Origin: Eledone cirrhosa
Lineage: Eukaryota
DNA: 64,000 bases
Direction of reading: 5' to 3'
Assembly: GCA_964016885.1 (NCBI GenBank)
Contig: OZ024740.1
Span: 161,386,001-161,450,000, forward strand
The notes under the pieces are model-generated. The model made no database searches and was not told the DNA's origin. It saw only the letters and a program-made list of their open reading frames with translations. The number at the start of each line of letters is the position of its first letter. Within the stretch, counting starts at the first letter, position 1. The translations under genes were made by a program, and so were the position numbers. This document shows, piece by piece, positions 1,465 to 58,969 of the stretch.

Positions 1465-1543
<79 letters not shown>

Positions 1544-1748
1544 TATAAGTATGTATACGTACATACATATATGTATACAGACGTACAGTAGTATGTATAT
1601 ATATATATACATATATGCACACATATATATGTACGTATCGATTCACCGAACATTTATTATAATGTTCGGTGTGTTTGTAAACAAACATCCCGAATTAAGC
1701 CGTACAGTGTCTAGCAACCATCGTTGCTCATTTGTTCAACACTGACAA

Positions 1749-1797
1749 AGGAACGCTGTACTAGTTTCAAGCTATCGTCAGCAACGTATACCTTCCT
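1749..1797 (-). ncRNA. Type I hammerhead ribozyme, stem II partly deleted (family A)
   Basis: Minus strand reads ACGTTG-CTGACGA-TAGCTT-GAAAC-TA-GTA-CAGCGT. Confidence 0.6.
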
Positions 1798-2440
1798 GCC
1801 AGATGATTGAACGTCTGAAAGTATATACTTTCCTTATGCATATTAACGGCTGAGCAGCCTAATTTACATATCGAGTGAGTTAATCGGCCGGGCACACCGA
1901 AAACGATAAACTGAAAAAATGAAACGAAATTTCATTTCTCACTCTTAGTACGGCTGTTACTTAAATATAAGTATGTATACGTATATACATATATGTATAC
2001 AGACGTACAGTAATATGTATATGTATATATATACATACATGCACACATATATATATGTACGTATGGATTCACCGAACATTTATTATAATGCTCGGTGTGT
2101 TTTTAAACAAACATCCCGAATTAAGCCTGGCCGATTAACTCACTCGATATGCAAATTAGCCTGCTCAGCCGTTAATATGCATAAGGAAAGTATATACTTT
2201 CAGACGTTCAATCATCTGGCAGGAAGGTATGCGTTTATTATAATGCTCGGTGTGTTTGTAAACAAACATCCCGAATTAAGACGTACAGTGTCTAGCAACC
2301 ATCGTTGCTCATTTGTTCAACACTGACAAAGGAACGCTGTACTAGTTTCAAGCTTATTAGCTATCGTTAATATGCATATCGTTAATATGCATAAGGAAAG
2401 GATATACTTTCAGACGTTCAATCATCTGGCAGGAAGGTAT

Positions 2441-2483
2441 ACGTTGCTGACGATAGCTAATAAGCTTGAAACTAGTACAGCGT
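2441..2483 (+). ncRNA. Minimal type I hammerhead ribozyme (family A)
   Basis: ACGTTG-CTGACGA-T.AGCT.AATA.AGCT.T-GAAAC-TA-GTA|CAGCGT. Stem I ACGTTG/CAGCGT, stem II AGCT/AGCT, palindromic stem III ACTAGT, GUA triplet. Confidence 0.85.
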
Positions 2484-2748
2484 TCCTTTTTCAGTGTTGA
2501 ACAAATGAGCAAAGATGGTTGCTAGACACTACGGCTTAATACGGGATGTTTGTTTACAAACACACCGAGCATTATAATAAATGTTCGGTGAATTCATACG
2601 TATATATATATATGTGTGTGTGCATGTATGTATATATATATACATACTACTGTACGTATGTATACATATATGTATGTACGTATACATACTTATATTTAAG
2701 TAACAGCCGTACTAAGAGTGAGAAATGAAATTTCGTTTCATTTTTTCC

Positions 2749-2807
<59 letters not shown>

Positions 2808-11271: not shown

Positions 11272-11343
<72 letters not shown>

Positions 11344-11396
11344 GAGATTCTACAGGACTAGACCTGTTTCATTCTTTAGAAATCATCAGGAATCTC
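11344..11396 (-). ncRNA. Type I hammerhead ribozyme (intact core)
   Basis: Minus strand reads GAGATTC-CTGATGA-TTTCTAAAGAAT-GAAACAGG-TCTAGT-CCTGTA|GAATCTC. Stem I 7 bp, stem III ACAGG/CCTGT. A mutated mirror copy lies on + at 11397-11448. Confidence 0.85.
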
Positions 11397-11530
11397 AGAT
11401 TCCTTATGATTTCTAAAGAATGAAACAGTTCTAGTCCTATAGAATCTCTTCTATATTAAAACTTTTATACTCTGCTATGTATTGAGTACCTTACTTACTG
11501 TGGTTACCTCCGATTCAACCCTGAATAAAG

Positions 11531-11597
<67 letters not shown>

Positions 11598-11684
11598 TAA
11601 TAATAATAAATTTGAAGACTAAAATCCAAAGAGGGCTCGATAAGGATAAATCTATATCAAATATATAAGAACCGTAGAGCAAAT

Positions 11685-11921
<237 letters not shown>

Positions 11922-11950: not shown

Positions 11951-15560
<3,610 letters not shown>

Positions 15561-30644: not shown

Positions 30645-31296
30645 TGTTATACTTGGGGAGGGTCATATTGTAATATTGCCAGAAATAATAACAGAACACA
30701 CTCACTGTTTGGTTGGTTTTCGCTTCTGTATCTTGATATCTCCATAGTTATTTCATTTGGCAATCAATGTTTATCATTGATTGACCAGCGGTTAAAAATA
30801 CAGATATAAATATATATAGTCTATCAAAGTTCTTTCGTTGCACATCTGCAACATCATCAGTGATACTATTATGTTTCATCCTATTGTATTTTATCGTATG
30901 TCTACGCCATTTTTATTTTATTTTTATTTTTATTTTTATTTATTTATTTCTTCTTGTCTCTGTCTCTGCGCATGCGTTTGTGTGTGTGTATAATGTTTGG
31001 TGTGTGTGTTCGCGTTTGAGTGTATGTGTTTTTGTTTTCGTATTCTATCTTTGTTCATTAGCGTTTATATGTGTTTGTTGTTATTGTACTTGTGTATATA
31101 TTTATTTATGTGTGTGTATATATATACATATATTTATATGTATATATATATATATATATATATTGTTATACTTTGGGAGGGTCATGTTGCCAATAAGAAA
31201 CACACGCACCAGCAACATGACCCTCCCAAAGTATAACAATATCGGTTTCAACACACGATTTCAGATAAAGAATCTTGCTAAACAAATTCAGAAACG

Positions 31297-31300
<4 letters not shown>
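30645..31300 (-). mobile_element. Solo PLE terminal-repeat fragments (family of the 40900-45505 PLE) with local inversion
   Basis: ACTTGGGGAGGGTCATATTG...CACTCACTGTTTGGTTGGTTTTCGCTTCTG shared with 40900 and 45105. Short inverted repeat 31161-31189 / 31211-31240. Confidence 0.75.
30822..30865 (-). ncRNA. Minimal type I hammerhead ribozyme
   Basis: Minus strand reads TATCA-CTGATGA-T.GTTGCA.GATG.TGCAAC-GAAAG-AA-CTT|TGATA. Damaged copies at ~41098-41135 (-) and ~45374-45417 (+). Confidence 0.75.
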
Positions 31301-40899: not shown

Positions 40900-43800
40900 A
40901 CTTGGGGAGGGTCATATTTGTGTAATACTGCCAGAATTAATAACAGAACGCACTCACTGTTTGGTTGGTTTTCGCTTTTCGCTTCTGTGTCTTTTATATC
41001 GGTAATCTAATTTATTCGGTCCTCAATGTTGCCATTGACTGACCAACGGTCAAAAATAATACAGATACAATATAGACACAAACACATATATATAGTTTAT
41101 CAAAGTTATTTCATCTGCAACATCGTCAGTGGTGCTATTGTTTCCTCCCGTTACATTGTATGTCTACGCCATCTTTATTTAGTCTGTTTATATATTTATT
41201 TATTTATTTGTTTGTTTGTTTATTTTATTTTGTCTTCTTTGCGCATGCGTTTGCGTGTGTGTATAGAGTTTTGTTTGATGTGTGTTCGTGATTGGGTGAC
41301 TGTGTATTGGTTAAAGTATTCTATCTTTACTAGTGTGTTTATATGTGTTTGTTGTTATTGTGCTTGTGTATGTATTTATTTATTTATTTATCTATTTATT
41401 CATTTATTTATACTTCTCTTAGGTCAGTGCTGTTTGTTTGGGTGTTGTTATTATTCCATTCATTCTTTCTGTTTAGTCTTGGCCTTCTAAGTTCTATTTC
41501 ACTGGCCTCTCTGATTTGCCTATCTGTTGGGTCTTTTCTATGTTTAGATATTATTCTAATTTCTATGTTGTCTATGTTACCGTCGTGTTCTTGTCTGGCA
41601 TGTTCGTATAGTACTGACCCGTTTTTTCGTCCTTTTAGTCCCCCCCCCCCAGTGTTGGTCTATCCTTTCACCTATGCTACAAGCTGTCTCGCCTATGTAT
41701 GTTGTTGTCATGTTTCTGCAAGTACCCTCTGTACATCTTATGCTATAGACTACGTTTCTAGTTTTACAGTTTATCCGGGGGTTTACCTTACATATGATAC
41801 ATTTCCTATTAGTACAGTGGGTTTTCTTAAAAGGGTAGGTTTTGCTGATCAGGGATTTTATGGTGGTTCCTGGCTTTTCTACCACCTTAACCTTTAAGTG
41901 GGTCTTTCTCAGGGCCTTTCTACGCTGGTTAGCTAATTTCCCTCCAGGGGTAGCGTCCACAAACATGACACTCTGGTATCTCTGGTTGTCGTACCATGAG
42001 GTGGCTTTCCCTATCTTATGTCTAGCCCTATCTAAGCTATTCCATGATTTGCTCCTGTATAATGGGCAAATTCCTTTCATGTCCAGTTCTATGAGGGTCT
42101 TATACTTCTCCATGGCTCCTTCGTATACTCTGACTCTGTCTCTTTGGTTGTAGCCAGAGAACTGCATGTGGTTGATGAAGTGTTGGATGTGTCTTTCCAT
42201 TTCTGTTTGGTCGCACATGCGGGACACATTCTTCATCACTCGTACCAAATTTGCGATCAGAATATTAAACTTAGCACTACTGGACATTGCTGAGTTTTTG
42301 AGTATCAGGTATTTGAGTATCAGGTATTTGGAGGCCATGGGTTTAGCATAGTGTGAGTGGAGAATTTGGGCTCTCTCGTCTATAGTGTTAATCTAGAGTT
42401 CCGTGTCTAATACAGGTAGTCTATTGTTAGGGTGTTTGGAAGGGTAGTCGATAGTTACAGTTATACTTTGGTGTATGGAATTAGCTATCTGCTGGATGCT
42501 TTCCATTGTGCTACGTTCTAAATCAAACTTGTTAGTGCTCTCTAGTGGGGATGTTCTTATAACTATATTGATATCGTCTACATAACGAGAGTACATGATG
42601 AGGTCTATGGAGCTCTCATTAAGGAGATCTTTAAGTCTCCTTTCCCACCATACCATAAAAAGGTTGGCAACATCACCAGCTATGCTGACGCCAATGGCTG
42701 CTCCCTCATTTTGGGTGTAGATCTCGTTGAACTTGAATATCTGGCCCTTTAGGATAGTTTTGATACTAGCCCCTATTGCATGTGCGACCATTTTTCTCAC
42801 CTGATCATTGTTTGGGGGGGTCCGTATAGCTTTGGTCCACCCAATCCACCTTCCCATGGGAGTCTTTTTTGCCATTGAGGTTATGGTGGGGTGTCTACCT
42901 TTTATGGGTCTACTAGGGCAGAAACGTCTAAGGTCATGGTTGTCTAGGTAGTCAGTGTCGTAGGTAAGTCTAAGTAGGAGGCCCAGTTCGTCTGTGTCGA
43001 CGTCGCAGAACTGCACCTCACTCTCAATGTTCATCTCCACACATTTTTCCACAGCAAAATCAATGTTAATGGATGGGTACAGTGATACCACATCCATGCT
43101 GCCTATTATGCAATTGGATAGGTTCCTGTTTTTGTTGCACTCACTGATTCTGAGGAGGTCCTCTGTACTGTCACATACATCTGGGGACATCTTGATTATG
43201 GGGCGTATAACCATTGAGAGGAAGTAGGAGATCCTGTAGTTGCTAGCTATATTAGCTCCGCATACGGGTCTTGTTGGTGGTCCTGTTGTCGGGTCGTCGA
43301 CTGTCTTGTGGTCTTTGCGGAGCCCATACAAGGGTGGTATGCCATTGTTAGACGCCTGGAAGTTGTTGGCAGTGCGTCTGCTTGGCTTTAGGATGTCAGT
43401 CCACATCATCATGTGAGCGTTGAGGATTTTCTCTCTCCCATCATGTGTTTGCTGTGCAATTTCGCTCGTGTTTGTGATGTGGGGTTGCATAGCCTTGATG
43501 TAGTTCGGCATGCTATCTATTGACATCCCTCCAGACTTATCTGTGGGTAGACATACTACCTCACCATCCCTTGTGCGCTGCTTGAGGCTAACCAAGCCTT
43601 CTACAGGTTTCCTCCCAAGTTGTTGGGCCTCTGGTCTGCTCTGTCTCTTAGTATACCGGTCTACTATTTGTCTAATCTTATTTCTAGCTATGGTGAACTG
43701 TGCCTCTGTCTCGTCATCTATTTGTTGTGGTATGCAAACTCTTTTATTAAAGGGCAACCTCGTAGGATAGATATTACCCATCTTATATGTTTTGTCAGCT

Positions 43801-45105: not shown

Positions 45106-45505
45106 GGGTGGGTCATATTTGTGTAATAATATTCCCAGAATTAATAACAGAACACACTCACTGTTTGGTTGGTTTTCGCTTCTGTGTCTTTTATATCGGT
45201 TAATTTAATTTATTCGGTCCTCAATGTTACCATTGACTGACCAACGGTCAAAAATACAGATACAATATAGACACCAACACATATATATAGTCTAACAAAT
45301 AAATAAATAAATAAATAAACAGACTAAATAAAGATGGCGTAGGCATACAATACAACGGGGGGAAACATAATAGCACCACTTACGATGTTGCAGATGTGCA
45401 ACGAAAGAACTTTGTTAGACTATATATATATTTGTTTCGACACACAATATTTGTTTCGGCACACGATTTCATATCAAAAACCTCGCAAAACTAATTCATC
45501 GCCGT
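40900..45505 (-). mobile_element. Long PLE (RT + GIY-YIG) with terminal repeats at both ends
   Basis: ORFs 42393-44150 (LPTDKSG, LYGLRKDHK, SMDVVSLYPSI, GAAIG, YSRYVDDI, LPVLD) and 41577-42338 (NVVYSIRC..YIGET). Repeat 40900-41100 recurs at 45105-45290, with an inverted piece at 45295-45425. Confidence 0.9.
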
Positions 45506-45527
45506 TATATATATATATATATATATA

Positions 45528-47572
45528 CAGTGGGTCCTTGATAAACGGTAGTTCTTTATCCGGTAAATTCACAGATACGGTTTTGGGTAATTACTACCAT
45601 CATTTCTAAATGGTAAAAAAAATTCACAGATATGGTTTTTGGTCCTGTTTTGTTTATATAACGTCCTGTGAATATTGCTGATGCAGATGGAAAGCCAAAC
45701 GCATGAAGAAGAGCCTGACGTTTGAGATAAAGCTGGACATTTTGAAAAGGAAGGAACAGGACAAGGTACGTTCGCCATAAGTCGTAACTTAGGCCTAGCC
45801 CAGTCTACAATCTGTACTGTTTTAAAAAATGGTGAGGCTGTCAAAAAAGCTGGGGAGAATGCTACGAGTCTAGAGAGTAAATTGCTGACGAAACATCGTG
45901 AGCCGATTATGGATAGGATGGAAAGGTTGTTCAAAATTTGGATCGACGACCAAAATTGTCAAAAGATGCTTCTGTCTTTAAATGTAATCAGTGAGAAAGC
46001 ATTGCCCATTATTGACAGGCTGAAGACTGAAATTGGGGTGGAGAACTTTGTATTCAAGGCAAGCAAAGGCTGGTTTGATAAGTTCAAATGACGTTCGAGT
46101 CTTCACAACATAAAAGTTACAGGTGAGGCTGCCAATTCCGACAAAGAGAGTGCTGAAAAATTCAAGGCAGAGTTAGAGAAATGCATTGCAGAGAAGGAGT
46201 ACAGCAAAAAACAGGTTATTAATTATGATGAAACAGGACTTTATTGGAAAAAGATTACCAGTAATACTTATATTGACAAGGAGGAGAAAAGTGCGAAGGA
46301 GTTCAAAGCCTCAAAGGACCGCGTTATTCTGTTACTTGGAGGGAATGCAGAAGGAGATTTAAAGCTAAAGCCACTCATTATCTACCATTCGGAAACTCCA
46401 ATAGCACTCAAGTGGTTACTTAAGCAATACCTACCAGTGATATGGAAGTCTAATAAGAAGGCATGGCTGATCACTTCAATTCACCAGGATTTTTTTACCT
46501 CATATCTGTCACCAACCCTTAAGGAATATGCATTAGCTAACAACATTGCCAACCGTTTTCTGCTATTAGTGGACAACGCCCCCCAGCCGCCCACGGGCAA
46601 TGGAAGACTGGTCAGCAAATATTGAGATTTTGTTTCCCCCCCCCCCCCCAATCACCACAGCTCTCATTCAGCCGATGGATCAAACAGTCATCAAAACATT
46701 TAAGGCATAGTACCAGCAGAGAACCATGCTGCAGCTGATAAAGGGCACAGGTGGGCCTGACAAGCCCACGATCAGGGAATGTTGGAAATTGTACAACATC
46801 AAGGACGGCTTAGACAACATCAAGGCATCTTGGGAAGAAGTGAAGCAGTCTACCATGAACTTGGCCTGGAAGAAATTATGGCCAGCATGTGTGAATGACT
46901 TCCAAGGCTTTGCTGAGGACATTGGTGTGATAAAAAAAAGATATTGTAAATCTCTGGCTTAGAGCTGGCTTCGATGGTGTTAATGATGATGATGTGCAAG
47001 ACCTTTTGGAAAGCCGAGCTGAACCACTCTCCAATTATGAACTCATAGAACTAGACAAGGCGATACATAGAACTAGACAAGGCGAAACAATCTTAGAAAC
47101 CCTGAAAGAGCGTGACCCCAACCCTGCTAGGAGCAGTAAAGTGGCTCAAGACATCGAGAAAAGCGTCAAGATTTTCCAAGAAATGTATGAAGCCAAAAGA
47201 AACACTGCCAAACATTCCTCCATCTACTCTTTCTTCAAGCCAGTCACACAGGCCAACCGTGCTACAGCTGGCCCTTCAACATCCACTGCAGTCAACGAGT
47301 TTGTTGGTTTTGAGCCTCCCACATCACCCTCATCCTCCCCTTCCAACTCAGTCCAAGATGAGCAAGGGCTGAAACCCGTACTGTCATCCGATGGACTACG
47401 CGGCATGTGTAAGGTACAGTAAATTAAAAAAACATTATTTCTTTTCTGTAGGGATGACTTTTTCGATGTGCTGGAATGCATCCCTATCTATTTCTGTTAT
47501 AATGGGTTCTTTATACGGTAATTCGATATAAGGTAAGGATTTCAGGAACGCATATATACCATATATCGAGGT
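45528..47572 (+). mobile_element. Tigger/pogo-family DNA transposon, transposase pseudogene
   Basis: Starts TA|CAGTGGGTCCTTGATA. Contains FKASKGWFDKFK, NYDETGLYWK, KASKDRVILLLGGNAEGD.KLKP, LLLVDNA, LIQPMDQ.VIKTFK, with stops and frameshifts. Confidence 0.9.
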
Positions 47573-47658: not shown

Positions 47659-47662
<4 letters not shown>

Positions 47663-48260
47663 AAATAACGAAACGAAATTAAATTTCGTTTCGTTTGTAA
47701 CTCACTTTTGTATGACTGACGCTTAAACAATTAAGTTAAAAAATTAAGTTAAAAAATGTACATCCACATATGTATACTGAAATACTAGTATGCATATGAA
47801 TACACACACGTGTACATATGTAGATGTACCGAGTTTTTCACTGGACACTTTACTGTGAGTGTCCAGCTATTCTGTATGTAAACACACAGACAAACCGGTT
47901 TTTAGAGTCATACTGGTTTTCGAAGAAACACCTTTCCTCTATTCTCCAGAAAGCCAGACAAGGAATATTGGACTAGTTTCGATGTTGTTACATCTCATCA
48001 GCAATATTTACCTATCTTCCGGCCTTTCTAGAGAATCGTAAAAGCACATATCGTTATATGCTTTTTCTATGAAAATTAGTAGTGGGCAGACTAATTTGCA
48101 TAGAGCGTGAGTACGTACCGGTTCAGCGGAGACGATAAAAACAAATAACGAAACGAAATTAAATTTCGTTTCGTTTGTAACTCACTTTTGTATGACTGAC
48201 GCTTAAACAATTAAGTTAAAAAATGTACATCCACATATGTATACTGAAATACTAGTATGC

Positions 48261-48291: not shown

Positions 48292-48719
48292 TATAGAGAT
48301 AGATATATATATATATACATATATATATATAGATATTCAAAACAAAAAACAGCGGAGGACGCGTTTCGCACCTTTCCGACAGACAACCTGTCCCCCACCC
48401 CGGAAAAAACCCCCAGTTGATGGATGTGAATCCGAAATATATAGGGACAATTAAATCTCTCCCAAGGTAACTCGCTCTCGTGTTGTTATTTTAATTTTAT
48501 CCTTTATACTCTTTCCTTCATTCCTCTACACGTCTTATACACACCATGCATCTCAACGTACACCCACTTACATCTCTCTCTCCACCACCGGATCTTGTTA
48601 CCCGGAGATTTACCCATTTGCATTGTCGAGGCTTCCAAACGACTTAAAGATATTTACCTATTATTCCAAAATGCTTCAAGCAAACTTCAATACTCTCTTA
48701 TATACATATATTTATATAT

Positions 48720-51700
48720 GAAAACAGGGAGAAAGAGACGATTATTAGGAAGAAAAATATTTTTTTTCCTTTTTCATTTCTCTCTCTCTTTTTTCTGGGT
48801 TAGAAAATGATTAAAACGAAATGTTTTACTTTATGTGAAGTGTTAAGGTATTAGTTGATTTATTTATTAATTAACAATAGCATTTAATTATCTATTTGTA
48901 TATTTAATAATTATCTATTACAGGTTTCAGCATTTTTATGCATTATCAAATGATAGTGGTATGTATTGGTGTAGAATGGTGGTATTGCACATGTTAAAGA
49001 AATGGTGCAGAAAGAATAATGTTATTTACAAACAAGGTTTATGAAATGAAAAGAAAAAAGAAAAAAGAAAAAAAGAGGCGTAAAGTAGAGCATAAAAAGT
49101 CAATGTGAAAGAAAAAATAATGTAATTTACAGGCATAGTTCTTGAAGTTAAGCAGATCAAAATGTGTTAATATAGCAAGGGTGCTTAGTTTATCCATGAT
49201 TCCATGATGGAGGCAAATGGTGGACTGTCGTTTGATATGATTTCCCTTTTTAGAGAGTTAATATGCAGGGGGAGGCAATTCATGCTGGATGATATTTAAT
49301 TTATTTAAGAAGAAGGATTAGGTGAGGGAGGTAATTCTTGTAAATGTTTGATTGTTTGTTCCAATTTTAGTTTGGTCCGAAGTTTAGTGAATTAAGTAGA
49401 GGTTGGAATTTGTTAATGAAATATGTTTCCTATTGGTACGATGGATGAAAGTAGCGTTGTCTATGAATTTGTAAATGGGGAACATTTTAAAGTTTGGATG
49501 TTGGTTGTGTGTACAATTAGCGATATGTTCACTAAATGCAATCTTTCTGTATTCCTGTATTTTAATTTGTGATTTATGGACGGTCATACGTTGACGGCGG
49601 CTGTTTTTTGTCTGTCCTATGTAGTACTGTGACAACCTGAGCAGGTCAAAACATAGATTAGGTTTTCGGATGCACATGTAAAGTTGTGTTTAACTGTGAA
49701 ATGTTGTCCTTGTTTAAAATGGAATGTTGAACCTTCTATTAGATTTATGCATATGCCACAGTTGGGCCTTCCGCATTTTGTTACTGTAGGGTTCATTGTG
49801 AGGGTTTGTTGGATTTTGGCTTGTGTGAGGATGTTTTTTAGGGATTTAGGTTGTCTTTTGATCTTTATGATGTTTTGTGTTTGGAGGATTTTGTTCATTC
49901 TTGGGTCTCTTTTTAGTAAAGGAATGTTCTGGAGGATGGTGTCGAATGCCTCATTGTTGAGGGGGTTGTGTGTGGAGATGTATGGTAGAGTTTTTGTTGC
50001 GGTTCATTCCTGGGTTTGGGGTGTCTGAGTTCCTGGATGTCGAGTTTTAGGGCACGTTGGAATCCATTGTTGATTAGGGATGGTAGGTAGTTTCTGCTGA
50101 TAAGTGTATTTTTTAATTCTTCTAGTCGTGTGTAGCATGTGTATTTATCTGAAACTATTGTGCAGATCCTTCTGGCTAGGTTATAAGGAATTGCCATTTT
50201 GGTGTATCTAGGGTGGCACGAGTTGAATGGGAGGTATTGTTTGGAGTATATGTCTGTTTCTATGTTGTTGTTTGTTTTCTTGATGATGATGTCGAGGAAA
50301 GGGAGTTGTTCATGGCTGTAATTCATTGTGAATTGTAAGTTTGTGTTGAGTCCATTCAGAAGGGTTTTAAACTCAAACAGTCTATTTATACTTTCATGCC
50401 AGAGGATGAAGCAGTCGTCCAAATATCTCTTCCAGTTCTTTTCTATGTGTTGGTAGAAGTGGTTGCCGTATTTGTCTAGAACTTTGCGGTAGAGAGTGGT
50501 TTCCAAATATCCCATGACAAAGTTGGCGTATGAGGGGGCTTCTTTCGTACCCATGGCGGGCCCAGATTTCTGTCTGTAGTATTTGGCATTGAATTCGAAG
50601 TAATTGTTTTCCAAGGTGAATTTGAGTCCCTCCAACACAAATTCTTTAGGGGTGCGCTGTGGGAGTTCACTAGGGAAATTTTCAAGCCAGAATTGTATTA
50701 CCTCTATAGCTAGGTTATGTGGGATATTGGAATATAAATTGATGACATCAAAGGTTACTAGTAGGGTATATTCATCATTGAGTGTTGTTGGGAGGTGGTT
50801 GAGCATGTCAAGGTTGTCCCTTATGAAGCTTTTTATGTGTTTTAGGAAAGGTTTAAGCAGAATATCTAGGAAGTTGCTTAGGCGGTGGGTTACACATGTG
50901 GTGCCTGCTATTATGGGTCTTAATTTAAGGTCATCAGGAGGGGCTATATTGATGTAAACGTCTGTGGCTTGCTTGCAGGCCCAACCTATTACTTCGCTTT
51001 TGTGTGTCTTTGGGATACCGTAGAAGAGGCTGGTTCTGCTTTTGAAATTGGTGATGTAGTTGTATTCCTTGTCTGTAAGGCCTTCTTTGTAAAGGATTGT
51101 TAGGGATTTTAGGTTTCTCATTATTTTCTGTTGTGTGTAATGTTGGGCCTTTCATAATATGTTTGGTTTTCTAGAGTTGAGAGTACTAGAGTCGTGTAAT
51201 AATCTGTCTCCATAAGGACTACTTCACTCCCTTTATCTGCCTCTTTGATTGTTAGGGTTTTGCCGTTTTTTAGACTGTTAAGACCATTCCATTCTTTTTT
51301 GCTTAGGTTTGTTTTTTGTTTATGTCTGTGTAGGTGGTGGTATGGGTAATTAGTAATGTGTTCGCAGAATTGATCGAGGAATTTGTCCTTGCCTTTTGGT
51401 GGGGTGTAGTTGCTTCTATTTCTGGCTATTGAGTCATCCTCATTGTATTTGTCGTATAGTTGCTCGCTGAGTCTTAGTTTTCTACAGAATTCTGCAATAT
51501 CTTCCTTCATTTCGGGGTAGTTTGGTTGTTGGGGAGTTGGTGTAAATTTTAGACCTTTGGAGAGTATGTTGATTTGGTCTGTTGTTAATTCTTTAGAGGT
51601 TAAATTAACAATTTTTATTGCATTTTGTGACTCCTGTGTGTTTTGTGTTATCTTGTTATCCTGTGTCTGTGTGCTGTGTCTAAAAAATGATTACGGAAGT

Positions 51701-53304
51701 TGTGATGGCTGTTGAAGTTTGGATGTCTCTTATAGTTGTATTGGCCCCTGCTGCTGTTGTTAGATGGTGTGTAGCTGTGGTGGTTGTTGAGTTTAGGTTG
51801 TATCGTGTGGTTGTATTGAGCCCTGCTGATGTTGTAGGGTGTGTAGATTTGATGGACGTGGTTATAGGGTGTGAAGTTATGGTGGTTGTTGAAGTTGGGT
51901 TGTATCGTATCGTTGTACTGAGCACTGCTGTTGTTGTAGGGTGTGTAGACTTGGTGGTAGTTGTAGTAGGGTTGTCTTGTGTGGTTATATTGAGTCATGC
52001 TGTTGCTGTTATATGGTGTGTAGCTATGGTGGCTGTAGTGGTTAGGGTGTCTCGTGTGGTTGTATTGTCCCCTACTGGTGTTGTTGTAGTAGGGTGTGGT
52101 TAGTGGGGGAGGGTAGATTAGGGTTTCCTTATAGCTGGTGTGTGGTTGTGAGGCCCCGTGTGACATGTGTGGTAGTTGTGTATTTTGGTTTCTACGTTGG
52201 AAGTAATGATGGTTGTGGGTTTGTTGTGTAGGGATGTTAGGGGGGTTGTAAGTGTGGGGGGTTCTATGGTTTCTCCTGGTGGAAGAGAAGTTGTAGTGTC
52301 TATCTTGTAGCTGATGTTTCTCTATTACTATATTTGTTGCTTGGGTCCGTGTGGTAGTTGTGTGGAGGATGTAGGAGGTAGGGGCGAGGTGATGCCTACT
52401 TTTTTTGGTATTTGGGGAGGTATTGTTTTTTTTTTGTTGTTGTTGGTTGTTGTATGGTGTTTGGGTGTTGATTGAGTTTTCTTGTTATTATGGTTTTAAT
52501 GAAGGGGTTCTTGGATGTGTGTTCTTTTTGGAAAAGTGTTTCATAGTTAGAGAACCAGGTTTCGTTTATTTCCCAACGTTGAAGGGATTTTAATTATTCC
52601 TTATTACAGTCCTCTAACCATAATTTTGAAATATTTTCTAGGGTGGTGTCTTTGGTTTTATTGATAATTGCTTGATTAATCTCATCGTCGATTGATTTGA
52701 TCCTATCTTCATTTGCTTGGGCTCTCAATTTAAGGAGTTCAATTTCGGTTTTTATGTTATCAAGTGCCATTCTTTCCCTGAGGCGTCTTTGAGTCTCGGG
52801 TTCGTTTGGGATGGATTTAATTTGTAGTTTGCGGGGGATGATTAATGGGGATGAGTTAATCCATTTTTCATAGATCTCCGCTTTGTTATTGTTTTGTATC
52901 ATCTTTCAAAATGAGAATTTCCTGTTTTTAAAAGATGTGTACCAGTGTGGTATTAATTGGTTTTTTATTTGGTAAGTTGTAAGTGTATTAGTGTCATGTG
53001 TATTTTCGTTCGTTTGAATAGGGTTTGTGTTGTTATTCAGGTGTGTTTTTATTGTTTCACATAAGTTGTTGATATTGTCGTTGATTTCATAGGATGTGTA
53101 TTTGGGAATTGTTTCTGCACTTGTAGAGTTTAGTTTGTTGGTGAGTATTGACAAATTAGAGTTAATTTTTTGTAGTTCTTGGAGTATCTCTTGATTGGTG
53201 CTAATGAGAGTGGAATCTGTTTTTGTTTTAGTATGCATTTTCTGTATCTCGTGTGGGAGTGAATAATAATAATAATAAAATGCGGGGAGGAAGCACACGA
53301 GTTA

Positions 53305-53307
<3 letters not shown>
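48720..53307 (-). mobile_element. Near full-length PLE (long N-terminus, RT, GIY-YIG), frameshifted
   Basis: ORFs 52906-53298, 52594-52902, 51121-51510 (KEADKGSEVV), 49913-51121 (FYGIPKTHK, LRPII, WKRYLDD), 49617-49898 and 49384-49677 (NLIYVLTC..YYIGQT). Confidence 0.92.
48912..48955 (-). ncRNA. Hammerhead motif, U3-A8 core variant, in PLE 3' terminal region
   Basis: Minus strand reads TATCAT-TTGATAA-T.GCAT.AAAA.ATGC.T-GAAAC-CT-GTA|ATAGATA. Homologous motif at 12235-12276. Confidence 0.6.
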
Positions 53308-53369
<62 letters not shown>

Positions 53370-53652
53370 TTAGAAACACACAGATACATGCGGACACACA
53401 CATATATACAGGAGTGCATCCGCACCCAACTGTGAGTTAAGGGTGCCAACTTCACCGATGTTGCTCAATGAATGACTGGGACAGACCAATTCAGTTGAAC
53501 TAGACTGAACCAGTATCAGAGTTAAAAATACATTATGAAGAGAGAAGAAACATTTAGATATAATTAGTAATAAAATGTATCATACCTAAACTGCTCCTAA
53601 ATTCCTCGACTACTATATATATATATGAAAACAGGGAGAAAGAGACGATTAT

Positions 53653-54371
53653 TAGTACATCGTTCCTTTGTCAGTGTTGAACAAAAGGGCAACGATGGTT
53701 GCTAAACACTGTACGGCTTAATTCGGGATGTTTGTTTACAAACAAACCGAGCATTAAATAAATGTTCGGTAAATCCATACGTGCATACATATTTATGTGT
53801 GCATGTATGTATATATATATATATATATATATACATACTACTGTACGTCTGTATACATATATGTATGTACGTATACATACTTATATTTAAGTAACAGCCG
53901 TACTAAGAGTGAGAAATGAAATTTCGTTTCATTTTTTCCATTTATCGTTTTCGGTGCGCCCGGCCGATTAACTCACTCGATATGCAAATTAGGCTGCTCA
54001 GCCGTTAATATGCATAAGGAAAGTATATACTTTCAGACGTTCAATCATCTGGCAGGAAGGTATACGGTGCTGACGATAGCTAATAAGCTTGAAACTAGTA
54101 CATCGTTCCTTTGTCAGTGTTGAACAAAAGGGCAATGATGGTTGCTAAACACTGTACGGCTTAATTCGGGATGTTTGTTTACAAACAAACCGAGCATTAT
54201 AATAAATGTTCGGTAAATCCATACGTACATATATATATGTGTGTGCATGTCTGTATATATATATATATACATACTACTGTATACATATATGTATGTACGT
54301 ATAAATACTTATATTTAAGTAACAACCGTAGTAAGAGTGAGAAATGAAATTTCGTTTCTTTTTTTCCATTC
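53653..54371 (+). mobile_element. HHR mini-element family A, ~1.6 tandem units (443-nt monomer)
   Basis: TAGTA|CATCGTTCC at 53653 and 54096. Ends in (TA)n. Confidence 0.88.
54064..54106 (+). ncRNA. Minimal type I hammerhead ribozyme (family A)
   Basis: ACGGTG-CTGACGA-TAGCTAATAAGCTT-GAAAC-TA-GTA|CATCGT. Confidence 0.88.
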
Positions 54372-54616
54372 ATATATATATATATATATATATATACATA
54401 GAATATTTCCGTATCGTGAGAGAGTAAAGGTTTAAAGGGATAGGAGATACATATAGTTAATTGCCAAAAGCTGGTGCATTTGTGCTCACTACTTGTGCCT
54501 ACAGGGTTACATATCGGAGGCGTTAATATTTAGTGGGCGAGAATATAAGCAGAGCGGGTTACAAATGAAAGGAATACAAAGGAGAATACATGCTGTTAGA
54601 ACATGTCTATACAAAA

Positions 54617-54658
54617 GCACCTACGTACGTTTCGCCCGAACAGGGCTTCTCAAGGGCA
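54617..54658 (-). ncRNA. Hammerhead motif, U3-A8 variant
   Basis: Minus strand reads GCCC-TTGAGAA-GCCC.TGTTC.GGGC-GAAACG-TA-CGTA|GG. Stem I is weak. Confidence 0.55.
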
Positions 54659-55018
54659 TACAATTCTAGAGACTGTTCAGTACAGAACCCAGAAGGGGTT
54701 TTAAAGTGATAGTTACATTAAAGTTCATTTTTGATTCATTTGTTGTTATTGTCACCGATCAAGGGGAGTAACTCTGGCCGGTGTTTGAATAAACGTCCCC
54801 AAATGGCTTATATATATATACATATATATATACATATATATGTATATATACAAATATAACGAAGGAGTTGTGGTACGGAACCAAATGGACCATAACGCAC
54901 CAGAGTACTCAATACTTAGTGTAGTAGAGTGGGTAATAGGAGAAAGTATGACCCCGACGTCCAGAAATAGCCGTCGAAACGGCTTGAGCTCTGCCGTCGA
55001 GGTCATACTTTCTCCTAT

Positions 55019-55070
<52 letters not shown>

Positions 55071-55074
<4 letters not shown>

Positions 55075-58000
55075 TTAGGAGGTGAGTTTTATTGTAGCAC
55101 AATAAAGCAATGCAAATATCGGATAAGTAGCACTCTACTGTTTGTAGGACTGGAGTATAAATAATATAAGATCAAAAGATGGTTAAAAGAGTTCCAAGTA
55201 TTTTATTATGCGCATTTCAAATACAAATATCATCATGATATGATATCTGCGTTTTAATCAGATAAAATAGGGATACATGATATGAAGGTTAAAAAACACT
55301 TGTGAATAGTGAAGTTTTAAATCAACATATAAAAAATAATTTAAGATTGATGTGTGATATTGGGAAAAAGTGAGGGGGGGTGGAAAGGGTAAAAAAGAGG
55401 AGATGAGAGTAAAGTGGGGTGGGGGAGGAGTATAAGAAAGAAGGATGGGAGAGGAGGAGAGATGGTGATATATAGAGAGAGATAGCCTTTACAACTGAGA
55501 AAAATATATATTGTCTCACAGAGAGAAGTTAAAAAGCCATTGGAAGATAATAGATAATTTAAAAGAATTTGAAATCAAAAGTTGATGAAGAGAAAAGGGG
55601 GTTAAGAATAATATTAAATTAAATTAAGGTTTGTATATTGAAGGGTTTAATAATATGTGCGAGGAAAAGAGATTGTTAATATGTATTATTAAAATAAAAA
55701 TATTAATGTTATTAAGGATATAATGTGAAAAGAAGTAGAAGAGTGGATGAGTTATGAATTTAGAGGAATTAGTTTGTGTTTAAGTTTGTTTTTATGTAAT
55801 GTAATATGTGTGCGTAATATATGTAAATAGTTTGTTTAAAAATGAGCGCAGAAAGCAAAGAAGAAAAGAATGTTTAAGGAAGAAAATATCTAACATCAAA
55901 ATATATGTTTACGAAATATTTTCTAATGGTAATAATATAATATATTAAAGGAAATTAGTTAGGGTTTAAGTTTGTTTTTATGTATTGTAATATGTAATAT
56001 CTAAAAATCAAACGAGCATGAAAGGAAGAGATAAAGAACTTAAGGAAGAAAAATCTAACGTCAAAAAATGTTTATGTTTACGAAGGACTATTAAAGGTAA
56101 TACTATAATGTATTTAAAAGATAATAATAATTTTTATGGCCAATGATATGAAGAAAGATGGAAGAGTGGATATGTTGTGGTGAGTAATAATAATAATTGA
56201 GAAGTAGTTAGGAAGTAAAAGTACAGATTAGAGGTTAGAAATTAAAAAGAAAAAGAAAAGAGGAAGAAAGGAAAGTGATAAAGAGGAATGATATAGAATG
56301 AGTAACTTGTATTATATAATATATAATAAATAATATTAAAATAAGGTAGAAAGATGGGTATATTTAAAAAAATATATATATATAAGCCTTTGAGAAAAAG
56401 GATTTTAAACAAGTAAAGAATTAGTTATTAGCTGTATTCTTTATGGAATGTTCTGTGGAATTTATGCAAGCAGAGAGAAAATAAATTAGTTCGTCTATTT
56501 ATTATAGAATCTAAATTAGATATAATGGTAAATTTCTCAGATAGGCAAAGATTACACGTTCTGGATAGGGAGGCATTCAAGTAGGGAGAGGCAGAACAAA
56601 CTTTCCTCCAAGAGATGTTATAGTTAATATTTTTGTCTTTCAAGGACCATATGAGTTCTGAGAGTGCCGTGTTAGTTCTTTTAAGTCGGTATCTAAAAGA
56701 CGAATTGTGATTATAAAATCTCACTTTGAAGGAGGTGGAAGTGGAACCAAAATAGGTAAAGGAATTAGTATCAGTTATAACCTTACATTCATAGACTAAG
56801 TTTTTTTCAAGACAATGGTTATTGAGAGGACATTTAGTTTTAACAGGGCAATTACAATTGCGATTAGAGAAATTAGCAGAGTTATTAACAAGTGACCTAA
56901 TGTTATTTATAGGAGGAATTGGATTGGAGAAGTTATTTACGATAGGAATAATAGTTTCCTGATTTAGGTTGGTATTATGAACATTCAACGAAGTTACATT
57001 TTACGTCGTATTTGAGTTTGCAGAATCTAGCCTAGAGTTAACAATGACGTCGGGAGTACTACTGCTATTATTATGACACTCAGTGTTGGAAGGATGTGAT
57101 TTAATATTTAATATTTTATTGTTGTGTTTAGAGATAATGTTAGAGATGTTGGTGGAGGTGGAATAGGAAAATGTTATTGTATGTTTGTTAAATATTTTAC
57201 TATAGATATGTGAGGGAGGGAAGCATTTATCTAAGGCCCTAAAGAATAGTTTAGGAATATTATTATTAATAGAAATAGAGAAAGTAGCATTATACCAGAT
57301 TATATTTTTGTATCTAGGTCATTTATTTAAGTTACTGGAATGATCATAATTAATTATTTTACTGTAAGACCTTCTAGGATTGGTTTCTTTACTGTATTTA
57401 ATTTTATCAGTATAACCGGCTTTAGAAAGTGCATTATTATAGTAATTGGCGTTAGCATCAAATATATTTTTATTAGAGGATAGGTTTGATATTCTTTTTC
57501 CAATATTACTAACTATATAAGTTTTAATGTTAGTGGGGTGGTTAGATTTAAAATTAACATAATTTAGATTCTCATTGTTTTTATGGTAAGGGTAATATAG
57601 GCCAGTGTCAAGATTAAGGGATATATCCAAGAAGTTAGCTAGTTTGACGTTGTTATCAAATTCGATTTTAAGATTATGTTGCTTAAAGAGATCACGTATA
57701 TTGTTCTTAATAATATTAAGGTTAACTAAATTGCAATTTAAGATAGTAAAAAGTCCATCGTCACGATAAATTCCACCGCGAAGTTGAGGAATTTTCCGAC
57801 TCAAAGAGTTCAAAATAAAGATACCAATTAAATCTGTCAATTGGGATGAATCGGATGCTCCCATTGTGATGTCGAAGTTGTTAGAGGTATCAGCTCTGGT
57901 CCAATATTCATTGTTGAACTCTAGGATGGTTTTACGTGCGGTGAGAATGATGTGAAGTTCATCTGTGGTGATGTCAGAATATTTAAATGCGAAAGATTGT

Positions 58001-58195
58001 TGAGAAGTGAAGGCGAAATAGAAGAATAGTAGCTGGCAATATCAAATTGAACAAATTTTAGTTTGTTTTTATTATTCAATTTGTTGAACCAGCCAATCAC
58101 TTCAGAAGTACCAAACCATAAATTTAAGTTCAAAGAAGAGCAATTACTCTGGCGCGTTATGGTCCACCTGGTTCCTTACCACACTTCCTTCGTTA
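55071..58195 (-). mobile_element. PLE (YRDDGL-type RT + GIY-YIG-like), 5'-truncated, flanked by (TA)n
   Basis: [69 protein letters not shown]. Confidence 0.9.
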
Positions 58196-58246
58196 TATAT
58201 ATATACATATATAACGAAGGAAGTGTGGTAAGTTTGATACATACAT

Positions 58247-58486: not shown

Positions 58487-58865
58487 TACAATATTAAATA
58501 AATGGAAACTATATTTATAAAACCATATCTATTTCATTATATATATTTCGGGGATATCATATTAACAATATGCTATGCCTTCCTCAGACAAAATACAATA
58601 TAAACAGTTTTATATATAAATATATTCGACATACCTTAATAACACCGACTTGCATTTGGAGAGGTTAAAACAGGCAGTCTGTTTTAACCTCTCCAAATGC
58701 AAGTCGGTGTTATTAAGGTATGTCGAATATATTTATATATAAAACTGTTTATATTGTATTTTGTCTGAGGAAGGCATAGCATATTGTTAATATGATATCC
58801 CCGAAATATATATAATGAAATAGATATGGTTTTATAAATATAGTTTCCATTTATTTAATATTGTA
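58487..58865. repeat. Palindrome with 187-bp arms (no mismatch seen by eye) and 5-nt spacer; each arm holds an HHR motif
   Basis: Arms 58487-58673 and 58679-58865. Plus-strand HHR 58759-58820: TTTTGT-CTGAGGA-long stem II-GAAA-TATATA-TA|ATGAAA. Mirror copy at 58532-58593. Confidence 0.9.
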
Positions 58866-58969
58866 AATATACTCCAAATATTTGTCGAGTGCTTTTATAT
58901 CAGTTATAAATATTTACTAGTTGTAACCCAACAATTGTAAATATAACTTTCCATGTATTTATATATATA

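Follow-up and report, generated by a model that had tools for sequence, protein, structure and literature searches.

A head-to-head junction between a Penelope-like element terminus and a hammerhead-bearing repeat in Eledone cirrhosa, possibly made from two RNAs at one (TA)n break

Within a 64,000-nt stretch of the Eledone cirrhosa genome (contig OZ024740.1, positions 161,386,001 to 161,450,000; hereafter the window), we analysed a region that holds a long minus-strand Penelope-like element (PLE), here called PLE1, a short spacer, and a 29-bp PLE terminal stub fused to a partial dimer of a repeat called family A (Table 1). The labels of families A-E are informal and were assigned in this analysis or by an earlier reader.

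Table 1 Features of the junction region and the sequences compared with it (window coordinates)
Feature	Coordinates	Strand	Basis
PLE1, apparently full-length Neptune-like PLE	48720..53306	-	RT and C-terminal GIY-YIG-type EN
PLE1 3'-terminal hairpin, last 76 nt	48720..48795	-	fold z -3.9, 0/200 shuffles
250-bp spacer between PLE1 and stub	53364..53613	.	starts with candidate PLE1 TSD
(TA)6 tract	53614..53626	.	putative primer of short PLE arm; from sequence
29-bp PLE1-family 3'-terminal stub	53627..53655	-	identity with 48720-48748; fold
TAG microhomology at head-to-head junction	53653..53655	.	random joins of at least 3 nt: 0.064
Family A partial dimer	53653..54371	+	self-BLAST, unit mapping; 3' end at (TA)n
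Type I hammerhead motif CUGACGA...GAAACUAGUA^	54062..54108	+	descriptor scan; palindromic stem III
Family A 3'-terminal hairpin	54334..54371	+	fold z -2.3; motif search
(TA)n tract	54372..54396	.	putative primer of family A arm; from sequence
Same-family inverted family A composite	1536..2754	.	both 3' ends outward; comparator
Other short stubs	12083-12111, 31164-31189, 58214-58232, 58146-58193		TA-flanking arm comparison

The homology of PLE1 to proteins combining RT and GIY-YIG spans its whole RT-EN part in tblastn searches, and the element has the PLE-type RT followed by a C-terminal GIY-YIG that marks EN+ Penelope-like elements. Its RT matched Pfam RVT_1 with E 7.9e-6, which falls short of the curated cut-off, while no Pfam GIY-YIG match was found in PLE1 itself, such a match being present only in a 75%-identical copy at 13406-14284. 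Among the 120 homologues listed of 363, the named ones come mostly from Octopus, Mytilus and oysters, which points to a probable molluscan host. Neptune and Nematis elements are defined by a CX2-5CxxC linker before GIY-YIG, a DKG motif and a C-terminal EN (PMC8557442), and in the PLE1 translation we found 'KCGRPNCGIC' (a CX4CxxC linker), 'ADKG' (the DKG motif) and, at the C-terminus and across a frameshift, the 'LTCSGC..YYIGQT' of the GIY-YIG region. From these motifs and the domain order we class PLE1 as Neptune-like, with Nematis as the alternative. It resembles the Neptune clade in its RT and C-terminal GIY-YIG-type EN, DKG motif, CX4CxxC linker and (TA)n flanks, and this copy differs in that neither a pLTR nor a hammerhead was detected. 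Membership in Naiad was rejected, the EN being C-terminal and the motif DKG, not DKA.

The aligned RT-EN part of PLE1, about 630 codons, contains three frameshifts and no in-frame stop, and because a stop-free RT-EN part is improbable at 5% divergence (probability 0.04 in simulation), the copy appears to be young. We found no terminal repeat (pLTR) in PLE1 and no hammerhead on either of its strands by scans that detected the positive controls, so that it lacks the canonical pLTR-hammerhead structure; searches of 48700-49500 returned no ribozyme family. The 16-mer AGAGAGAGAAATGAAA lies within its terminal hairpin at 48772-48787, and a candidate 9-bp target-site duplication (TSD), ATATATTTA, frames PLE1 alone at 48706-48714 and 53364-53372, a sequence that only 2 of the 77 TA tracts in the window carry at their right edge. 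The N-terminal part of the PLE1 frame (51683-52484) contains degenerate repeats with many Asn, His, Tyr and Thr residues, which recall the Asn-rich inserts described in rotifer Penelope ORFs (PMC3846280). A second Neptune-like PLE, 75% identical to PLE1, lies at 13403-15554; its 3' region is unlike that of PLE1, being GT-rich and running toward a (GT)n tract.

Searching outside the window with the PLE1 protein gave one locus in metagenome contigs and none in genome contigs, and an alignment of 29 proteins gave nine loci in genome contigs and none in viral contigs. All fetched PLE1-like loci were distant (27-51%) and none was informative on the junction. Five indexed sequencing runs contained between 0.09 and 0.46 of the words of 48400-54800, fractions that carry no evidential weight. 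The closest of them, L002 (51% identical), carries a hammerhead in its 3' UTR, the sole match to the canonical core among the 10 loci scanned; it is a type I motif (L002:1846-1950) about 100 nt ahead of a TA-abutting end. The PLE contigs L002-L010, deposited in bacterial genome records, are probably contamination from animal hosts.

Family A is a non-coding repeat with a 443-bp unit, present at two loci in the window; over its copies, no ORF reaches 120 aa except one frame at 1949-2326 that spans a microsatellite. The fused copy consists of the unit 53658-54100 and a partial second unit, has an internal TA-rich tract, and its two units are identical at 117 of 118 positions outside the microsatellite. 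Cleavage of its hammerhead is predicted after 54100, and the equivalent site in the fused unit lies after 53657. The hammerhead core (CUGANGA, GAAA, UH) is invariant in all five aligned motifs, and the stems covary, with 89.9% of cells paired and double-sided changes in 8 of 15 pairs (reached in 0 of 500 shuffles, a control inflated by the relatedness of the motifs); core, stems I-III and covariation are thus those of a type I hammerhead. Two points speak against this assignment: stem II of family A closes with a U-U pair, and no Rfam family matched its hammerhead. Minimal hammerhead motifs often cleave weakly and as dimers (PMC4209133). Searches of viral contigs with the family A ribozyme pattern gave no match.

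Non-LTR retrozymes are described as low-GC units of about 150-450 bp, each carrying one type I hammerhead (PMC7229834), and family A has this layout, being a non-coding tandem unit of low GC with one type I hammerhead and dispersed copies. It is therefore like the metazoan non-LTR retrozymes described (PMC7229834; 10.64898/2026.07.22.740005) in its non-coding, low-GC, 443-bp partial tandem with one hammerhead per unit, and differs in having only one whole ribozyme in the copy at 53653-54371. An 'active' retrozyme copy is said to require two consecutive units with complete ribozymes (10.64898/2026.07.22.740005), whereas each family A copy has one complete motif per arm. PLEs have been proposed as the mobilisers of metazoan retrozymes (PMC7229834; 10.64898/2026.07.22.740005). 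In Xenopus, 24 of 57 retrozyme families matched known elements, mostly PLE termini (10.64898/2026.07.22.740005), whereas family A is no pLTR derivative of the hammerhead-less PLE1.

The earlier note had claimed that one 29-mer marks both the 3' terminus of a long minus-strand PLE and the edge of the family A copy, and that the two meet at a shared TAG ahead of the ribozyme cut site. Both claims hold: GAAAACAGGGAGAAAGAGACGATTATTAG at 48720-48748 and at 53627-53655 is identical at 29 of 29 positions, with 7 further common TA bases on the left, and the TAG lies at 53653-53655. Self-comparison of the window revealed no third copy sharing even a 12-mer, and only about 3e-8 chance pairs like these two 29-mers are expected per window under an order-2 Markov model; the first 25 nt of the stub had no match among metagenome contigs. 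Two details required correction, since the PLE, confirmed as long and minus-strand, has its 5' end at 53306 rather than 53307, and the fused unit, whose junction does lie near the cut site, carries only a 3' remnant of the ribozyme and no whole one. In the assembled sequence the stretch 53627-53655 is thus a copy of the 3' end of PLE1, fused 5'-to-5' with family A through the common TAG. The outward-facing 3' ends of stub and family A both run into (TA)n, their 5' ends meet, and the head-to-head join itself is free of any TA tract. The inner end of the stub coincides with the base of the inner stem in the folded PLE terminal hairpin. The spacer at 53364-53613 has no match beyond microsatellite elsewhere in the window and is probably host DNA; its best scores against families A, B and C, 17-24, led us to reject a relationship with any of them.

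To judge the TAG, we turned to the family A composite at 1536-2754, in which the family is joined head-to-head with itself. Its two head-to-head junctions, at 2125-2127 (GCC) and at about 2365-2380 (CGT), both show 3-nt microhomology when read against the reference unit, whereas microhomology is absent from the third junction, which is tail-to-tail and contains a 3-nt insert. Because both same-family junctions show 3 nt and only 6.4% of random joins reach at least 3 nt, we take TAG as true microhomology. The composite is made of four segments, and its left arm stops about 50 bp before the 3' end of the right arm, an offset like that between the two RT start sites that give rise to the PLE tail.

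The junction thus combines opposite orientation, a 5'-5' join and microhomology, the features of a two-template insertion. Our preferred reading, to which we give an even chance, is a single integration: each end of one (TA)n break would have been extended on a different RNA, with the two products joined at TAG. A GIY-YIG endonuclease would have cut both strands at a (TA)n tract; the right-hand TA end would have primed on uncleaved or religated multimeric family A RNA, of which about 720 nt were copied, and synthesis from the left-hand TA end would have begun at the 3' end of a PLE1-family RNA and ceased 26-29 nt later, presumably at the base of the inner terminal stem of that RNA. The 3' ends of the two cDNAs would then have annealed through TAG/CTA, followed by fill-in. 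The identity, orientation, microhomology and hammerhead motif are observed, as is the youth of both parts (the stop-free RT-EN part of PLE1 and the 117/118 identity of the family A units); that the two extensions were simultaneous, why the short arm stopped and which enzyme carried out either step, we infer. The outward 3' termini at TA, the TA-free join and the same architecture in family A at 1536-2754 argue for a single event, whereas the pure-TA flanks, the single junction in one 64-kb window and solo-looking stubs elsewhere argue against it.

Parts of this scheme have precedents. Purified PLE protein, modelled as a dimer, cuts and extends both strands and needs no target homology to start reverse transcription (PMC11167929). 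For human L1, nine two-transcript insertions have been described, the opposite-orientation ones being explained by the joining of two extended ends (PMC11702581), and twin priming and synchronous L1 events are considered related (10.1101/2024.08.27.596794). In contrast, inverted PLE junctions were put down to self-priming in a rotifer study (PMC3846280), whose account also describes no cross-mobilisation between endonuclease-bearing and endonuclease-deficient PLEs.

The earlier note had proposed that two cDNAs were primed on either side of a single (TA)n break; the geometry and the 3-nt microhomology fit this proposal, whereas a TSD is unreadable between two flanks of pure TA, which leaves room for two successive insertions at one TA-rich spot with no tie other than a common (TA)n preference. 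We consider such a history a serious if somewhat less probable alternative, and because the pure-TA target would hide any duplication it is nearly as likely as a single event. An older, 5'-truncated PLE1 piece would have been in place, and a later family A cDNA would have annealed at TAG inside it with deletion of the intervening part, a course to which we attach the same, less than even, probability. The 77 TA tracts of the window are crowded with insertions, stubs without an obvious partner occur among them, and joining of PLE 5' ends by microhomology without a TSD has been described (PMC3846280). The deletion, however, must have ended no more than 29 bp from the terminus of the older element, unless the older piece was very short, and the microhomology has the same length as in the same-family inversion junctions. 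The join can also be read as stub, TA and a family A beginning exactly at the cut site, which would be the case if a family A cDNA had extended just to the ribozyme-cut end, with a single host TA remaining; this variant requires TAG to be a chance 3-nt match (0.064 or less).

A local origin of the stub appears improbable. It would be either a 29-bp pLTR remnant of a read-through cDNA spanning 48720-53655 or a DNA-templated patch, copied from the neighbouring PLE1 during repair of the family A break, as might be suspected from a stub that lies 320 bp upstream of the PLE1 5' end, at the second of the 77 TA tracts past that end, in the same orientation and with 29/29 identity. Partial tandems sit at such upstream positions (PMC8557442), and L1 shows templated inserts from nearby DNA (PMC11702581). 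However, a candidate 9-bp TSD belongs to PLE1 itself, in which case the 250-bp spacer would be host DNA, and no match to any element of the window was found for this spacer. Between young copies, perfect identity is moreover no surprise (0.17-0.56 at 3-1% divergence), and local clustering is seen in other families too, three family D ends lying within 3.4 kb. Least probable of all, and very much so, is a mis-join of two repeat families across TA tracts during assembly. The region is repeat-rich, the three stop-free frameshifts of PLE1 could be sequencing indels, and complex PLE insertions are known to trouble assemblies (PMC8557442); against this, the join falls in unique sequence and not in a TA tract, its microhomology is as long as at other junctions, and unique DNA continues beyond both flanks.

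Returning to the single integration, we asked whether the ribozyme site, on which the earlier note laid stress, sets the position of the join. At the junction, 2-5 nt of the sequence before the cut remain. Family A copies run through the cut site four times, and the other four family A 5' breakpoints fall at unit positions 58, 301, 346 and 416, so that only one of five lies within 5 nt of the cut (p about 0.12). Ribozyme cleavage as the setter of the junction is thus unsupported, the stress laid on it was not borne out, and the site is probably incidental. If TAG is true microhomology, reverse transcription of family A continued for 2-5 nt beyond the cut, and the template was therefore uncut or religated there, which agrees with unprocessed RNA being the main substrate of purified PLE (PMC11167929).

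Comparison of 196 TA-flanking arms uncovered four other TA-anchored terminal stubs of 19-49 bp (Table 1). The stub at 31164 belongs to a same-family inverted pair, of which it forms the short arm, and those at 58214-58232 and 12083-12111 look solo; because such stubs exist, the PLE1-family stub may have been in place first. The fourth is a 48-bp family D terminal stub at 58146-58193, fused head-to-head with an RT-truncated PLE (together 55071-58193) with no TA tract at the join. It did not match the own 3' end of its partner PLE as present in the window, and we regard it as an apparent second cross-family join, whose stub may instead have a same-family origin further downstream. The 19-bp family D stub at 58214-58232 lies opposite-facing across a TA tract from it. 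Abortive 3' cDNAs and head-to-head joins are thus commonplace in this genome, a finding that speaks for the mechanism and at the same time weakens the case for a special pairing.

Whether the junction links PLE1 to the mobilisation of family A, as the earlier note suggested, is a separate matter, since a single event does not require the PLE1 protein to have carried family A. On sequence grounds we hold it possible, if rather doubtful, that the PLE1 protein mobilises family A. In favour are the one junction, the similar youth and same target of both, and a weak 16-nt match common to both 3' hairpins, which reads AGAGTGAGAAATGAAA in family A at 54334-54349. This 16-mer, noticed post hoc, occurs only in four family A hairpin copies and in the PLE1 terminal hairpin (5 matches, 0.02 expected). 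Under strict scoring the match was reached in 6/1000 and 0/1000 shuffles and in 2 unrelated of 2432 windows (TA-free control), but it loses significance when scored leniently; an equal score also occurs in the 3' region of another PLE, and a further shuffle control gave 26, 10, 1 and 1 of 2000. We also rejected extended homology linking family A with the PLE1 3' UTR, since the lenient alignment scores were reached in 72/1000 and 9/1000 shuffles and in 37/2432 windows. Against the link, PLE1 has no hammerhead or pLTR that could be a source for family A, several other PLE families are present in the window, and the two ends can have been extended by two different enzymes. Moreover, because other stubs and a second apparent cross-family fusion occur in the window, the pairing of PLE1 with family A may be unspecific, so that of the suggested link the one junction stands while its specificity is in doubt. 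Less likely still is the fuller scheme in which a dimeric PLE protein would hold its own and a passenger RNA, PLE1 mobilising family A via the common 3' hairpin motif AGAGWGAGAAATGAAA. If it were true, cross-family head-to-head junctions would be a fossil record of enzyme-passenger pairs, and retrozymes unlike any PLE terminus could be assigned to an autonomous partner from the genome only.

The closest known system is the inverted 5'-truncated copy of canonical EN+ PLEs with a tail of 30-40 bp (PMC8557442; PMC3846280; PMC11167929). Such insertions share with our junction the head-to-head arms, outward 3' ends, AT-rich target, 5' microhomology and a terminal piece of about 30 bp. In the descriptions available, however, the inverted arm is of the same family and the tail is an optional extension, whereas here the arm comes from a family without extended homology to family A and the 29-mer is the PLE's own terminus, no extension of family A. 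L1 two-transcript insertions (PMC11702581; 10.1101/2024.08.27.596794) likewise involve two DNA ends, different RNAs and a 5'-to-5' microhomology join, but use an APE endonuclease and poly(A) priming in human cells and have readable TSDs, in contrast to the GIY-YIG PLE, TA priming and invertebrate germ-line fossil without readable TSD considered here. A cross-family PLE-retrozyme head-to-head junction was not reported in the literature searched, which covered few subscription journals and no supplements and is weak evidence of novelty. We regard the junction as a cross-family version of a known insertion pattern that gives no more than a hint of the enzyme that mobilises family A.

Two questions are touched by this reading. 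The mobiliser of animal retrozymes has so far been argued from co-occurrence and pLTR homology (PMC7229834; 10.64898/2026.07.22.740005), and the inverted 5' arm of PLEs has been attributed to self-priming on one template (PMC3846280) or to extension of both strands (PMC11167929). Fold-back on a single template cannot give a junction between two unrelated RNAs. If such junctions are single events and non-random by family, they would settle the origin of the inverted arm and make the mobiliser testable by counting. One junction in a pure-TA target settles neither question.

Several other insertions lie in the window. A 12-bp TSD, TATACAAATATA, with only two occurrences in the window, frames a unit at 54847-55027 made of a minus-strand family D terminus and a near-perfect 77-bp hairpin (z -9.5); this is either a second two-RNA insertion or family D plus a later TA-inserted hairpin element, and since the right part could be such a later element we did not count 54859-55015 as a two-RNA insertion. 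At 58491-58959 and 11596-11829, TA tracts enclose long palindromic insertions in which one arm is extended by 85-100 bp; that at 58491-58959 has a hammerhead motif on both strands. Two short tandem units between TA tracts at 11341-11450 have a minus-strand hammerhead motif with a predicted cut after 11351. Rfam miRNA-like matches in the window were dismissed as microsatellite noise. Family B (47660-48260, minus strand) is related to family A, sharing about 67-70% identity over parts of its length, and has a strong 3' hairpin and a hammerhead matching Rfam HH9 at 38.9 bits, below the cut-off of 52. Family C, a hammerhead-bearing repeat, occurs in several rearranged copies at 30645-31298, 40901-41383 and 45106-45505, and its part at 31164-31298 comprises a 26-27-bp inverted stub and a 55-bp tail. 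A decayed pogo/Tigger-like DNA transposon (Pfam DDE_1, E 8e-15) occupies 45726-47422.
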